Of a stretch of 6,533 nt of DNA, positions 1 through 5,805 are shown piece by piece; the stretch's first letter is position 1, and every line of letters begins with the position of its first letter. Both the position numbers and the translations under genes were made by a program. The notes under the pieces were generated by a model that had not been told where the DNA came from, searched no databases, and saw only the letters and a program-made list of their open reading frames with translations. Origin of the DNA: a virus. Its lineage: Duplodnaviria > Heunggongvirae > Uroviricota > Caudoviricetes. The stretch spans positions 1-6,533 of IMG/VR virus record IMGVR_UViG_2548876862_000011, one strand, 5' to 3'.

Positions 1-3000
1 GGGGAAAGCTTTGCCCACTGTTTTAACGAGATCGCCTTCAATCTGGTTCGCGGACAATTTTCCCAGAACCCGACAGTTCTCGTTAATCGTGACGTTGTTG
101 AGCGTCCCGGAGTTCGCATTCACGTTACCGCTGATATCGGCATTTTTCGCCGTCAGCCGCCCGTCCGGTGTCAGGGAAAATGCCGGAGGATTACCGCCGC
201 TGGTAATGGTGGGAGCCGTCAGATATTTCAGGAACACTTCATTCATAAATATCTGATCGCCCTGACCAACAAACATCGGCTTTGTGTTGCCATTCGCAGG
301 ATTAATCATCGCAATCCTGTCTGCCGCCAGCAGCACCTGACTCTGCATTCCTGCTGGCGTATTCTCAATACCGGCACCGATACCCGCAATATAAAGGCGT
401 CCGTCCTGCATCTGCTGCAGTTTCACGGCCCACATGCTGTTCAGGTTATTATTTGTATCAACCTGAACTTTCTGTATCTGCTGGATTGCCGCACTCTGAT
501 TTTCCAGTTTTTTATTGACGGTCTGCGTGATTTCATTGCTGACATTCGTAATGGACGTCCTGATTTCAGCCAGGTCCGGCGCAAGCTGACCGTTATCAAT
601 CTGCGTCCACAGCTCCTGGGCCAGATGTGTTTTCCCGATTTCTCCTTTGAAAAAATCCAGGTAACCTTCCGCATCATCGCTCGCCCGACCGACAGCCTCC
701 ACGAATGCCGATTTGCCAACAGTATTCACACTGCGGATATAAAAATAATAATCATGGCCCGGTTTGATATTGATACTGGCAGCTATCCAGTACAGCGCCG
801 AGCCAAGATAGCGGGCTGCGGTTTCAACCTGCCTGATATCCGCAATCCGCTTTTCCGAGAACCAGAACTCAAACTGTACCGTCGGGTCATAAACGGCAAG
901 ATGCGGCGTGGCGGTTATCTGAAAATAGCCCGGCGTCAGCTCAATCCGCGACGGTGCTGCCGGTGCGGCAATCCGGAAGGTGGTGGTGGCAGGTTCACCC
1001 TGCTGGCCATAGCTGTTTATCGCCCGCACCGTCAGGGTGTATTCCCCGAGCGGCAGGCCGCTGAAACGGTGCTCCGTGTCTGCGGTGATGGCGGTGGTCA
1101 CCAGTCTGGCATCCGTTCCCTTACCACTGGTCAGGCGCAGACTGAAGCGCACGCCCTTCACCACCCGCGGCGTGTCCCATTTAGCCTGCGCCAGATACTG
1201 GCCGTCAGCTGCACTCACCTCCACCGTCAGGTGCTGTACTGCCGGTGGGATGACGCTGTTCAGGGAACCTGACTGCGGCTCAAAGCGGGCACCGTTATCC
1301 ACGATGGCTTCTTTTTCCGGTACGTGCTGCACCGCCGTGATGGCAAAGGTGCCGTCCGTGTTTTCCCGGACGGAGACACAGCGGAACAGGCGACGGCGCA
1401 GTGACGGCAGGGAGAGTCCCCACACCCCGTATGTCTCCACACCATCAGGCAGGGTACTGACCTGTATCCGGTCCGGCGCGGGGTGTGCGGTGATGTCCAC
1501 ACTCACCGGCTTACCGCTGCCGTTAATCAGGTTCACCGCCGATGTACCTGTCTCCGGCAGGGTAACCTCACGGTCCAGCGTCAGGGTGCGGGTGGCAGCA
1601 TCAATGGACAGGACACGTCCGCCGGTCAGGGTCCCGGCATAGTCATTATCACAGATTTCAATAATGTCACCGGGTGTGTGCCGCAGCCCCTGAGACCCGA
1701 GCGTGAAATCCACCGTCTGCGTTTCCAGCAGTTCGGTCTTTATCACCCACAGTCCGGCACGGTGGGCCTGACCGCGGCTGGTACAGCCGAACGCGTCCAT
1801 CTTCAGCAGGTTGCGTCCGTAGCGCAGTATGGCTTCCGGGTCTTCCACCAGTTCCGTGGAGGTCTGCCAGCCGTTCTGCGGGTCGGTGTAATTCACCTCC
1901 ACCGCCGTGTGCCGGTCCTTCAGGGCACTGAAGCTGTAGCGGAATCCCACGCCGTTATCATCCACCACCACATCGCTGTTGGTGTACGGCCACACCACAT
2001 CCGACGGGCGGTCCTGAACGAACGTCAGCGTCTGGCCGTTCCATACCGGCATACAGCGCATCGCCGAGCAGAAATCACTGAGAACGTCCCACGCCTTACG
2101 CTGTTGTGACAGGTACGCATTAAAGGTCATCCGCGGCTCTGTGCCCCCGAAACCATCCGGGACCGTCTGGTCGCAGTACTGCCCGATGGCATACAGCGCC
2201 CACTTGTCCACATCCGCCGCCCCCAGACGTTTTCCCATGCCGTAGCGCGGGTGAGTCAGCATGTCCCACAGACACCAGGCCGGGCTGTTGCTGTATGCCG
2301 GTTTCAGACTGCCGTCCCAGATACCACTGTACGTGCGTTTTTCCGGGTCATAGTTTGACGGCACCTGGATGATGCGACCGCGGATATGGTAGTTCACCGT
2401 CATCTGCTGGCCGCCGAACTGCTCCGCATCCACCTGCAGCCCCACAATGGCCGTGTTCGGGTAGCACTGTTTCACATCGATGATTTCGGTGTATGACGAC
2501 CACAGCGTCTTATTCTGCAGCTGGTCCGTGGTGCTGTCCGCCGTCTCCCTGACCATCCGGATGTTAAAGGGCCGGGGAGGCAGATTATCCAGAATCACCG
2601 AGGCCAGGAACTGTGAGGTGGTCTTGCCGTTAATGGTGACGTCCTTTTCTGTCACCCAGTTACCGTTACGCTGTAACTGAATCAGCAGGCGGACGGATGC
2701 CGGGTTACGGTCACCCTTTGAGGTGGTCTCCACCAGTGACTGCACCCCGAAGGTAACCCGCAGGCGGTCAATGTTCGCGGACGTAATGGTGCGCGTCACC
2801 GGTTTTGCCTTCGTCACTTCCACGCCCAGTCCGGTTTCAGCTCCGGAGGACTCAAAGCCTTCCGGTGGTGTCTGCTCCTGCTCCCCGGCACGCCAGACCG
2901 CGGTCACACCGTGTATCACGGGATTGCCGTCCGTGTCCGTCAGTGGGGTTTTGTTCACCAGAATACTCTGCAGTCCCTTCACCGGACCTTCTATCGGTCC

Positions 3001-3096
3001 CTCACCAATCGCATCAATCACACTCATCATCTGCGTGGATTTGAGATTATCCTTCGCCTCACGAGGCGTGTGTGCCTTACCGCCACCTTTTCCCAT
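1..3096 (-). CDS. J: Central tail fiber / host-specificity (tip attachment) protein J-like; N-terminal 1032 codons, 3' end beyond the window
   Basis: Hand translation of the minus strand from ATG at 3096-3094 ([42 protein letters not shown]...) stays open for all 1032 codons to position 1 (3096 nt, ends ...GKAFP). SD-like GGGGAAGG sits 4 nt upstream. Long stretches resemble lambda gpJ as I recall it (e.g. [72 protein letters not shown]). Missing from the ORF track because no stop lies in the window. Confidence 0.9.
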
Positions 3097-3198
3097 ACAG
3101 CCTTCCCCTGAATAAATTAACCGCCACTTGCCATTCCGTACAGAAGTCGGATATCCTTCGCCCGAAAAGCATGAAACACATTTCTGCCATGCTAAAGA

Positions 3199-3236
3199 GA
3201 AACCCCGGTATCAGCAGATACCGGGGTTTTCTTTCA
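3199..3236. terminator. Perfect 10-bp GC-rich hairpin with U-rich tracts on both sides; candidate bidirectional intrinsic terminator
   Basis: ccccggtatc (3203-3212), loop agca, gataccgggg (3217-3226); A/T pairs extend the stem at the base. Plus-strand 3' flank is ttttctttc; minus-strand 3' flank reads tttctcttt. Confidence 0.45.
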
Positions 3237-3301
3237 TGCCCACCGATAATCCTGTTGGTTAAAACCGGTAATGGCATAAAAATTCTGAATATCTTCACAT
3301 T

Positions 3302-3329
3302 TTCACACACTGACTGTGGCGCTTATAAT
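3302..3329 (+). promoter_or_regulatory. Candidate sigma70 promoter: -35 TTCACA, 16-bp spacer, -10 TATAAT
   Basis: TTCACA at 3302-3307 (5/6 match to TTGACA), TATAAT at 3324-3329 (6/6), A/T-rich region immediately upstream (3261-3300). Points toward gene I, antisense to the tail operon. Confidence 0.4.
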
Positions 3330-3335
3330 TTCGCT

Positions 3336-3433
3336 GCGTTAGTGTTTTTTTGCCCGAGTAACAAAAACAACTCCTTAACATTGATCTTCATTTGTCTGTC
3401 CCCGCAGCTCCGCGATCACTGCGGGATTTTTTT
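3336..3433 (+). ncRNA. Hypothetical small RNA of about 100 nt defined by the promoter at 3302-3329 and the terminator at 3401-3433
   Basis: Promoter-to-terminator spacing fits a short transcript starting near 3336. No ATG and no SD on the plus strand within it. Contains CUCCUU (3371-3376), complementary to a Shine-Dalgarno sequence. Inferred from sequence only. Confidence 0.25.
3401..3433 (+). terminator. Rho-independent terminator, plus-strand orientation only
   Basis: Stem cccgcag (3401-3407) / ctgcggg (3419-3425), 11-nt loop, followed by attttttt (3426-3433). On the minus strand the hairpin is preceded rather than followed by the T-run, so it should not terminate tail-operon transcription. 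Confidence 0.6.
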
Positions 3434-3438
3434 ATGTT

Positions 3439-4119
3439 TTATCCCTGTCGCCCGACAACCACGACCGTTCCGCCCCCGCCTTCATCACGGGTGCTGATGT
3501 CCTGGGATATACGGCGGGAGCCAACCAGCATTTCCCCGTAAGGCACCGGCATCGGGTTCCCCTGGGCAATCATGTTATCCAGCGAGGAAAAGTACGTGTT
3601 CTGTCTGCCGTTATCCGTTGCGCGGTAATCCGGTGTTTTTGCCTTCGGGGCCAGCATCTGGGCCACACCGCCCAGAATCATGCTGGCTCCAAGTGAAAAC
3701 AGCATCGTGGTGGCAGAAAAACCACCGGCTGCCAGGGCTGAACCCCATAACGCCATTGATGCCCCGGCAGTGAAGAAAGAGCCCACGATGGCTGCCGCCC
3801 CCAGCACAATCTGCAGTCCACCCTTTCCGGCCCCGGCCAGTCGCGGCACAATGTGGATGACCGTTCCCTCACCCAGCTGTTCGTGAAGACGGGCGTACAC
3901 CGCCTCCGGTGCCGTGTCATAACCGGCAATACGTATCTGGTACCAGCCTTCGTTCATCTGACGGCGAAAGCCCGGCACCTGTAACGACAGCGCCCGGATG
4001 GCTTCCGCTGCCGTGTTCACATACAGGCTGAGGCGGCGGCCAAATCGTTGCAAATCCCCGTGAAGGCAGATGCGTGCCAGTGGCGGTGACGCCAGACAGA
4101 ATGCGTTCGTCGTTGCCAT
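3439..4119 (-). CDS. I: Tail assembly protein I-like (ubiquitin-like N-terminal domain family), 226 aa
   Basis: ORF with ATG at 4119-4117 and stop TAA at 3441-3439; SD-like GGAGAGG about 10 nt upstream. Protein (MATTNAFCLASPPLARICLHGDLQRFGRR...GGGGTVVVVGRQG) resembles lambda gpI as recalled. Starts 103 nt inside the 3' end of K in another frame. Confidence 0.9.
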   Translation of the reverse strand: MATTNAFCLASPPLARICLHGDLQRFGRRLSLYVNTAAEAIRALSLQVPGFRRQMNEGWYQIRIAGYDTAPEAVYARLHEQLGEGTVIHIVPRLAGAGKGGLQIVLGAAAIVGSFFTAGASMALWGSALAAGGFSATTMLFSLGASMILGGVAQMLAPKAKTPDYRATDNGRQNTYFSSLDNMIAQGNPMPVPYGEMLVGSRRISQDISTRDEGGGGTVVVVGRQG

Positions 4120-5464: not shown

Positions 5465-5805
5465 CAGTTCACCACCTGCTCAATCGTACAACTGAAATCA
5501 CTGTACCTGGCGTTATCTGTGACGCTCCACTCCCGGCACACCACCCTCACCGTCCGGTTATGTTTCGGCGGTCGCCACAAAAAGGCACGGTAACCACCAT
5601 GCCAGGATAAAAATTCATCCAGCCAGCGCCGGGTTGGTTCATCCGTCACCCGGAACACCGCCTGAAACGTCTTCAGTCTGGCATTAAGTCCCGTCGGTCG
5701 GCGCTGTTCATAACCGTCACCAAACCGAACCCTCACCACCGACGGTTTCTCACTCACCTGCATCCCTTCACGCGGGACCAGATGCAGCGTTTTTATCTCA
5801 GCCAC
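5464..5805 (-). CDS. M: Minor tail / tail tip protein M-like, 113 aa
   Basis: ORF from GTG at 5805-5803 (GGAGG SD 8 nt upstream) to TGA at 5466-5464; overlaps the H stop by 8 nt. C-terminus ...CTIEQVVN matches my memory of the lambda gpM C-terminus. An internal ATG at 5763 is an alternative start but has poor SD spacing. Confidence 0.85.
   Translation of the reverse strand: MAEIKTLHLVPREGMQVSEKPSVVRVRFGDGYEQRRPTGLNARLKTFQAVFRVTDEPTRRWLDEFLSWHGGYRAFLWRPPKHNRTVRVVCREWSVTDNARYSDFSCTIEQVVN

Follow-up and report, generated by a model that had tools for sequence, protein, structure and literature searches.

The window, i.e. the whole stretch of 6,533 nucleotides analyzed here, corresponds to the distal part of a lambda-like tail module encoded on the minus strand, as deduced from its list of open reading frames (ORFs) and from RefSeq annotation. 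The annotation was taken from a RefSeq locus in E. coli E2865 that is identical across window positions 3200-3500. The following genes and regions were assigned:

Minus strand: tape-measure gene, end only (ORF list, RefSeq annotation of the matching locus)
5805-5464, minus strand: M (ORF list, RefSeq annotation of the matching locus)
5464-4766, minus strand: L (ORF list, RefSeq annotation of the matching locus)
4760-4017, minus strand: K (ORF list, RefSeq annotation of the matching locus)
3439-4020, minus strand: gene of the tail assembly protein I (ORF list and RefSeq annotation of the identical locus)
3097-3438: intergenic region between I and J, 342 bp
1-3096, minus strand: 5' part of the tail tip/host specificity gene J, exiting the left end of the window (RefSeq annotation)

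J is missing from the ORF list, since ORFs that exit an end go unlisted. The I-J intergenic region harbors, on the strand opposite to the tail genes, a compact set of transcription signals:

3277-3285: A/T tract ATAAAAATT, upstream of the promoter
3302-3329, plus strand: sigma-70-type promoter with -35 TTCACA (3302-3307), a 16-bp spacer and -10 TATAAT (3324-3329), 11/12 match
3401-3433, plus strand: Rho-independent terminator (sequence, shuffles, conservation) with the stem CCCGCAG/CUGCGGG (CCCGCAG at 3401-3407, CTGCGGG at 3419-3425), an 11-nt loop, a single A (3426) and U7 (T7 at 3427-3433)

An earlier note, made from the sequence alone, had described this promoter with its upstream A/T tract, as well as an intrinsic terminator consisting of a 7-bp GC stem and a run of seven T residues; both are present. 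TTCACA-16-TATAAT is the best promoter-like site and the sole 11/12 match within the window. The minus-strand complement of the terminator does not possess a U tail, and the terminator is therefore unidirectional. The probability of a chance occurrence was estimated with 300 dinucleotide-preserving shuffles of the window. An 11/12 promoter was encountered in 2% of them and an equally strict terminator in 1%, whereas a promoter-then-terminator unit was found in none (0/300, 0%).

The predicted RNA begins approximately 240 nt from the start of J and stops 5 nt short of the stop codon of I (TAA on the minus strand, 3439-3441), and the 5-nt gap between T run and stop codon agrees exactly with the earlier reading. 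The designation of the RNA as antisense to the tail genes stands only with respect to orientation: the unit is located on the strand opposite to the tail operon, but no tail coding sequence is overlapped. Since the RNA lies wholly within the I-J intergenic region, it is antisense only to the polycistronic late transcript, of which it covers solely intercistronic sequence; an overlap with an opposite-strand gene, as expected of a cis-antisense RNA, does not exist here.

Folding of the transcript, suggested as a check by the same note, yielded a stable terminator hairpin, but the energy of the whole RNA is unremarkable (z = -0.9). This hairpin is the sole stable and conserved structure in the RNA; its stem is kept across 28 aligned variants and shows one compensatory G-C to A-U change. 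Coding of a small protein was considered and rejected. The predicted RNA contains no AUG, as had been claimed, a plus-strand ORF (3072-3497) crosses promoter and terminators, and homologues differ by 1-3-nt indels, e.g. in a U run of 5-9 residues.

Identity of the unit with pasB

PasB (pathogenicity-associated sRNA) is one of five prophage sRNAs found by Hfq RIL-seq in the EPEC strain E2348/69 (Pearl Mizrahi et al., Sci Adv 2021, PMC8550237). It is listed as E2348CN_0006, an 83-nt RNA from the minus strand of NC_011601.1 (1466343-1466261) in prophage PP6, and its published Northern probe is AATCCCGCAGTGATCGCGGAGCT (Table S6, PMC8550237). The reverse complement of this probe corresponds exactly to window 3407-3429, and the published RNA is placed as follows:

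3351-3433, plus strand: PasB sRNA as published, 83 nt (alignment with NC_011601.1 1466343-1466261)

Published PasB and window 3351-3433 are identical at 82/83 positions. The lone mismatch concerns base 3377 (position 27 of PasB), which is A in the window and C in E2348/69. Apart from this substitution, situated inside the predicted seed, the alignment of the two loci is gap-free and shows no difference from 3281, thus including the promoter region, to past 3445. Both units share the terminator and are located between the tail assembly protein I and tail tip protein J genes on the opposite strand. In contrast, the half of the intergenic region next to J (3097-3275) shows no relationship to its E2348/69 counterpart in the alignment; as the two sequences are unrelated left of approximately 3275, a mosaic joint lies directly upstream of the unit. 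Like PasB, the window unit has an intergenic position inside the structural operon of a lambdoid prophage and a terminator, here with a 7-bp GC-rich stem and U7. On the basis of the probe match, the 82/83 identity and the common I-J context, window 3302-3433 can be assigned with high confidence to pasB, a gene for a trans-acting, Hfq-dependent sRNA located between I and J in lambdoid E. coli phages and prophages, present here as a common allele. The change that separates PasB-2 from PasB is at position 27, and other variants are more prevalent than that of E2348/69 (Zhu, Shabalina & Storz, bioRxiv 2026, 10.64898/2026.05.13.724894). The seed SNP distinguishes the common PasB allele from the one that was studied.

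The independently expressed prophage sRNA postulated by the earlier note is borne out by the E2348/69 copy (82/83 identical), which is seen on Northern blots, depends on Hfq and forms chimeras in the uninduced lysogen. A position at the 3' side of RIL-seq chimeras is typical of sRNAs. E2348/69 PasB is always the 3' member, has 37 RIL-seq partners and ranks 15th among the hubs (PMC8550237). On Northern blots it shows a band of the predicted size, and in the delta-hfq mutant its level changes, relative to the wild type, by log2 -6.8 under activating (DMEM) and -2.4 under non-activating conditions (LB) (PMC8550237). That the motifs are incidental to the intergenic spacer, e.g. to a recombination linker between tail modules, and yield no functional RNA would be in keeping with the mosaic joint. 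This explanation is, however, extremely improbable in view of the detection of the RNA in E2348/69 by Northern blot, RNA-seq and RIL-seq, of a homologue very probably seen by Hfq-CRAC and Northern blot in EHEC Sakai (see below), and of the shuffles.

The unit is a correct rediscovery of the known PasB and not a new sRNA. As a discovery it is of minor weight, since experiments had already revealed PasB in 2021 and a 2026 preprint has surveyed where it occurs (10.64898/2026.05.13.724894). Reading of the sequence alone nonetheless led to a genuine sRNA gene for which Rfam has no family and the records examined no annotation: a search against all Rfam families at a permissive threshold (E <= 1) gave no match anywhere in the window, and a pasB-type gene annotation was absent from the RefSeq and GenBank records examined. 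Going beyond the published work are the divergent homologues, a CRP/FNR-like dyad, the probable membership of EcOnc22-24 and the prediction of a 98-nt transcript, all described below.

The first guess, derived from the AACAAAAACAAC tract, was an identity with AgvB/AsxR, which is ruled out by Rfam, location and length. The families RF02702/RF02703 (AgvB/AsxR) had no Rfam match in the window at E <= 1, while the same search found AgvB in the Sakai locus at 96.5 bits as a positive control. AgvB and AsxR are RNAs of 51-60 nt that are encoded at a moron site downstream of PR' and sponge core sRNAs (PMC4104026). The unit described here resides in the tail module and not at such a moron site, convergent with a second sRNA. 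The RNAs have in common that they are short, Hfq-binding and prophage-encoded in pathogenic E. coli, and that their 3' part is conserved while the pairing regions vary; they differ in that AgvB and AsxR act as sponges of core sRNAs, whereas PasB is predicted to pair mainly with ribosome-binding sites (RBSs) of mRNAs.

Transcript start and the conserved upstream block

From the location of the -10 element, transcription is expected to begin near G3336 and to yield a primary transcript of 98 nt, which is longer than the published RNA by a short leader:

3336-3350, plus strand: predicted 5' leader GCGUUAGUGUUUUUU (start inferred from the -10; outside the published 83-nt coordinates)

The RNA of approximately 100 nt expected by the earlier note thus agrees with the 98 nt predicted from the -10, but not with the 83 nt published. 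In the published coordinates the RNA begins at 3351, which is the final U of a run (3345-3351) and lies 15 nt downstream of the predicted start; the difference reflects either processing of the RNA or an error in one of the two estimates. The published ends derive from RNA-seq coverage and are said to agree with the size on the Northern blot (PMC8550237).

Among homologues, the -10 reads (T/A)AT(A/C)AT, its second base (A) and its sixth (T) being the same in every one of them, while the -35 is not conserved (TTCTGT, TCTGCA and CCGGCA in other variants). The choice of promoter in the earlier note is accordingly backed by the key -10 positions, but its -35 hexamer varies and a conserved 20-bp block lies just upstream. 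The sequence GCGTTA (3336-3341), which would form the first six bases of the RNA (+1 to +6), hardly changes within the family, in contrast to the variable discriminator, the stretch separating the -10 from the start site. These data bear on the alternative that the true start lies at or near 3351, that it depends on another, unrecognised promoter and that TTCACA/TATAAT is non-functional, leaving an RNA of 83 nt. The coordinates and Northern agreement reported by the original authors speak for it, as does the variable -35. It is nevertheless unlikely, because no acceptable -10 was found about 7-12 bp upstream of 3351 (GTTAGT and TTAGTG have neither A at position 2 nor T at position 6), because the key positions of TATAAT are invariant and GCGTTA is nearly so, and because the published ends stem from read coverage, with the U run 3345-3351 being a plausible RNase E site or site of read-coverage drop-out. 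For these reasons a start at approximately 3336, combined with processing in the U run or a coverage artefact, is favoured by the sequence comparison. A conserved 5' hairpin formed by the U run and an A-rich tract was also considered. It is predicted for the window and E2348/69 alleles, but other variants fold otherwise; RNAalifold recovers the terminator core alone, and a conserved 5' structure is absent from the variants.

Upstream of the -10, conservation is concentrated in one element, delineated with 16 BLAST-collected homologues of 73-100% identity:

3283-3302, plus strand: invariant 20-bp block TTCTGAANNTCTTCACATTT (conservation in 16 homologues; candidate activator site)

In these 16 homologues the block varies solely at the spacer positions 3290-3291, whereas the adjoining -35 region varies freely. 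TCTGA (3284-3288) and TCACA (3295-3299), 6 bp apart, resemble a dyad of the CRP/FNR type. Judged by consensus rather than by a position-weight matrix, TCTGA-N6-TCACA agrees with TGTGA-N6-TCACA at 9/10 half-site bases and shows TTT flanks. A distance of 32.5 bp separates the center of the dyad (3291.5) from the first -10 base, placing the dyad at about -44.5 for a start at 3336, which is 3 bp off the canonical class II CRP position (-41.5). The dyad suggests a candidate activator site and is regarded as a lead rather than a result. Such a site would explain the observation that E2348/69 PasB is higher in static overnight LB (non-activating) than in DMEM at OD 0.3, with 1820 vs 258 chimeric fragments (PMC8550237). 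The word "promoter" is absent from the 2026 preprint (10.64898/2026.05.13.724894).

Predicted pairing region and proposed mode of action

The earlier note had pointed to a CUCCUU motif as a seed directed against RBSs. The pairing region was re-analyzed with 12 of the PasB partners that Table S3 lists for the non-activating condition (PMC8550237), using the E2348/69 sequences. Sliding 12-nt PasB windows were compared with 60 dinucleotide shuffles of each target; 35 genuine RBS-centred segments of the same genome served as a second control. This procedure replaced unconstrained RNAduplex predictions of the whole PasB body against the targets, which gave long meaningless alignments and were rejected. 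The result was the following assignment, which rests on duplex prediction for these 12 partners only:

3370-3395, plus strand: target-pairing (seed) region ACUCCUUAACAUUGAUCUUCAUUUGU (RIL-seq partner re-analysis, predicted unpaired)

The region includes CUCCUU (3371-3376) and the family-conserved U(G/A)AUCUUC (3381-3389); it is single-stranded in the predicted fold, with a high unpaired probability. In the 98-nt numbering, perfect 6-7-mers complementary to PasB cluster at nt 30-57 for the 12 partners. Mean z values lie between -1.0 and -1.4 when the 12-nt window begins at nt 35-41, are about -1.1 at nt 49, and are near zero for windows upstream of nt 33. The best 12-nt window starts at nt 37-53 in 11/12 partners, within 9 of 30 windows (binomial probability 1.5e-5). 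Partners outpair the 35 RBS controls at windows spanning nt 37-60 (Mann-Whitney p = 0.0001-0.002), whereas at windows with CUCCU that end before the following CACAUUG (nt 29-44) they are no better than these controls (p = 0.11-0.46). In these models, pairing specificity would sit in UCCUUCACAUUGAUCUUCAUUUGU (window 3372-3395), with CUCCUU as its 5' edge. The proposed seed thus overlaps the pairing region, and approximately half of the sites fall on RBSs, but the motif named is just the border of the region; the complementarity of the partners and the location of their sites support the idea of an anti-RBS seed in substance.

Predicted sites lie over or directly upstream of the start codon in 7/12 partners (duplex prediction in each case; positions relative to the start codon):

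napF: -17..+6
caiF: -11..+19
tolC: from -5
gshA: -19..+14
yijD (annotated as the end of fabR): ends at -6
gene after E2348C_2648: ends at -6
yrdD: start-codon region, less clear

Among the RIL-seq partners of PasB are the virulence mRNAs map, cesD2, espC and bfpB (PMC8550237). When the original authors ran MEME, the PasB targets yielded no shared motif (Table S7 has 0 entries for PasB, PMC8550237). A seed just upstream of the terminator was proposed from conservation by Zhu et al. (10.64898/2026.05.13.724894), with which the mapping presented here agrees independently. A defined seed (3372-3395) and RBS-centred predicted target sites are concrete additions for further work on PasB. With A3377, the duplexes predicted for napF, yijD and caiF each lose 6.4 kcal/mol of stability; owing to this substitution in the seed, the window allele may have a partly different target set than the E2348/69 RNA.

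The best-supported account is that of a conventional Hfq-dependent trans-acting sRNA. According to this model, pasB would be transcribed from its own sigma-70 promoter, oriented against the late tail operon, which would enable a lysogen to make the RNA in the absence of prophage induction, as described in the literature for the E2348/69 copy. Transcription would end at the unidirectional terminator, whose U tail and hairpin would provide the usual Hfq-binding module. The adjacent single-stranded stretch (3370-3395) is predicted to pair with mRNAs, in many cases over the Shine-Dalgarno sequence and the start codon (napF, caiF, tolC, gshA, yijD), and also with some coding-region sites of host, LEE and plasmid mRNAs. 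The expected outcome would be a block of translation initiation. A3377 should shift target preference relative to the E2348/69 RNA, and the upstream CRP/FNR-like dyad may render transcription activator-dependent. With canonical enterobacterial RBS-occluding sRNAs, PasB shares an own promoter, a terminator U tail of at least 6 residues, a single-stranded pairing region, Hfq-dependent stability and many partners at the Shine-Dalgarno sequence or start codon. It differs from them in its horizontal acquisition, in its copy number (a genome may contain up to 10 family members), and in a pairing region that adjoins the terminator instead of the 5' end.

A main role in cis has been weighed against this account: the RNA, whose complementarity to the intercistronic I-J part of the late mRNA is perfect, could pair with it in the lytic cycle (a duplex of approximately 98 bp), or convergent transcription from the two strands could collide, uncoupling or tuning the expression of J (the host-specificity protein) versus I, with trans targets being secondary. 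Such a function would account for the constancy of position and orientation, for in every homologue examined the gene lies in the I-J gap and against the tail operon, and the slot is kept despite seed divergence. Moreover, a hairpin with a U-rich tail on the tail-sense strand is always found between the PasB promoter and the start of J. (A 66-aa minus-strand ORF, gp9c of phage ASU11, corresponding to window 3077-3277, spans the hairpin; it is absent from the RefSeq records examined and probably spurious.) Cis action as the main role is very unlikely all the same, since the RNA is plentiful in uninduced lysogens, where it is bound to Hfq and has 37 partners in trans, since no I-J chimera occurs in the PasB rows of the non-activating RIL-seq sheet, and since many copies reside in defective prophages unable to make late mRNA (Zhu et al., 10.64898/2026.05.13.724894). 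Action in cis and in trans is not mutually exclusive.

Distribution and divergent relatives

The distribution of the unit was determined by a sensitive BLAST census with window 3280-3440 as query against 5426 complete E. coli genomes. It was found in 1809 of them at 5516 places, with a median of 2 and a maximum of 10 per genome. Sorted by their best match, 863 records reach an identity of 99% or more, and 847 fall in the range of 60-90%. The unit is also present in many Stx1- and Stx2-converting phages. Divergent homologues (73-86% identity) fill the same I-J slot: all 14 divergent copies inspected are situated in the I-J gap and point against the tail genes. From IMG/VR and the BLAST loci, 50 distinct RNA sequences were gathered, to which the terminator and an AAUCUUC motif are common. 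The key -10 positions, the terminator and UGAUCUUC are kept in homologues down to 73% identity, while the seeds differ among family members (CUCCUUAAC, UUCCUUACAC, UUAUCUAUAG, CUCCAUAAC, CUCCCUGUGG and CUUCUUAAAA). These divergent paralogues are far more numerous than the few PasB SNP variants in the 2026 survey (10.64898/2026.05.13.724894).

To cover other species, the invariant 20-bp block was searched in one genome per bacterial species. The scan returned 42 matches; given the size of the collection and the length of the pattern, approximately 17 would arise by chance. With the matches assessed by organism, and those in Escherichia albertii and Brenneria inspected, the block occurs in a matching context only in E. 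albertii; the Brenneria match was without the unit.

A link to EHEC is offered by EcOnc22 (Sp15), EcOnc23 (Sp14) and EcOnc24 (Sp11), homologous Hfq-CRAC peaks of O157:H7 Sakai (Tree et al., Mol Cell 2014, PMC4104026, Table S2). EcOnc22 is approximately 85 nt long on Northern blots and destabilised without Hfq (PMC4104026); a review in 2021 gave its function as unknown. Its coordinates (2902714-2902774, plus strand) fall in the Sp15 I-J gap of the current Sakai record, where a PasB-like unit is predicted at 2902837-2902926. AgvB was used as a ruler between genome versions: the published peak (1941783-1941835, older version) compared with the Rfam match (1941920-1941981, current version) indicates a shift of +137 to +146 at 1.94 Mb. 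If the same shift is assumed at 2.90 Mb, the EcOnc22 CRAC peak falls inside the predicted PasB-like RNA. Like the window unit, the EcOnc22-locus unit lies on the strand opposite to the tail genes and possesses the same invariant upstream block, -10, AAUCUUC motif and terminator; it is about 74% identical to the window unit and differs in its seed (CUCCAUAACGUUAAUCUUCAUCG). EcOnc22/23/24 are thus probably members of the PasB family as judged from these sequence features, the identity of EcOnc22 being probable and not proven because the shift at 2.90 Mb is assumed from that at 1.94 Mb. No connection between EcOnc22 and PasB was found in the published literature, and EHEC homologues were given for PasA and PasD, but none for PasB (PMC8550237). 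The probable identity would link the EPEC and EHEC literatures.

A second class of units has another terminator (CUCCCG...CGGGAG) and retains AACUCCUUAAGG. This class is arranged in tandem with a class-1 copy, each behind its own invariant block. A tentative and rather doubtful extension of these observations is that the I-J slot houses a diversified sRNA family, comprising PasB, EcOnc22-24, the second terminator class and tandem arrays, with up to 10 copies per genome, in which one invariant CRP/FNR-type operator is combined with different seeds. If so, prophages would plug differently targeted RBS-blocking sRNAs into a single nutritional or oxygen signal of the host, and the same RNAs might also act in cis at the I-J junction of the late mRNA.

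As a side observation on the 14 divergent copies inspected, one carries a transposase gene in the place of J, and one stems from a record without annotation.

The J-proximal half of the I-J intergenic region

The half of the intergenic region next to the tail tip gene J (window 3097-3275) is unrelated to its counterpart in E2348/69, the EPEC strain of the published Hfq-dependent sRNA PasB, and in most Stx phages, and is covered in only 13 of 147 phage records. This lack of relatedness places a mosaic joint at about 3276-3283, just upstream of the invariant block that precedes the PasB promoter. The following elements map to this half of the gap:

3077-3277, minus strand: ORF of the 66-aa hypothetical protein gp9c, as annotated in phage ASU11
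3128-3157, plus strand: weak promoter-like site, TTGCCA-18-TATCCT, upstream of the hairpin
3203-3235, both strands: strict hairpin CCCCGGTATC-AGCA-GATACCGGGG, from our own terminator scan

The stem of the hairpin is followed on the plus strand by TTTTCTTTC and on the minus strand by TTTCTCTTT, so that it looks like a terminator for transcription from either side. It was not among the calls of the promoter/terminator scan of the window and was detected by our separate scan. In E2348/69 and the EHEC strain Sakai, the equivalent position is occupied by another hairpin, CAGGCACC...GGTGCCTG, whose tail is U-rich on the tail-sense strand only. Given these different hairpins, a terminator-like element is always found between the PasB promoter and the start of J. 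It may block non-antiterminated transcription entering J; alternatively, it may constitute the 3' end of another small RNA. Since the promoter-like site lies ahead of the hairpin, a second plus-strand RNA of about 70 nt is conceivable. The gp9c ORF spans the J-proximal intergenic region including this hairpin; it is not called in the RefSeq annotations examined, and its translation looks like that of non-coding sequence.

Tandem units, a probable EHEC counterpart and a possible inhibitory fold

In some IMG/VR prophage contigs (L071, L126, L146, and L112), the I-J gap is occupied by a tandem pair of sRNA units, and a separate copy of the invariant TTCTGAANNTCTTCACATTT block lies ahead of each. 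A further family member is encoded in the Stx1 phage Sp15 of Sakai.

L071 9840-10150, minus strand: tandem sRNA units of an IMG/VR contig
L027 1583-1727 (Sakai NC_002695.2 2902782-2902926): PasB-family unit in the I-J gap of Sp15

The invariant blocks of the tandem units are spaced 179 bp apart in L071, L126, and L146. The upstream unit is of a second class: its terminator differs, as does its -10 spacing in the case of L071. The Sp15 unit is very probably the RNA that Tree et al. (2014) listed as EcOnc22, with EcOnc23 and EcOnc24 in Sp14 and Sp11; the literature searched makes no connection of EcOnc22 with PasB.

In many variants, the nearly invariant 5' GCGUUA (window 3336-3341) is predicted to pair with UAAC(G/A)U adjoining the seed (3375-3380), strongly in the L075 and L112b units and weakly in the window. 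Such pairing could hide a portion of the seed and thereby act as a self-inhibitory fold; there is little variation in these elements.

Probable insertions

In the IMG/VR contig L117, one copy of the unit continues past the invariant block only as far as its -35 region, where it is broken by unrelated sequence bearing no resemblance to the sRNA unit. This looks like a mobile-element insertion, by which the sRNA gene copy would be disrupted. The best whole-window matches (H16-H27; O26:H11 and related STEC) consist of two pieces over about 8.9 kb, beneath which the IS66-family element ISEc22 is annotated. Accordingly, an insertion of about 2.4 kb without counterpart in the window seems to be present in these STEC genomes, probably situated in or near J (window 1-3096).
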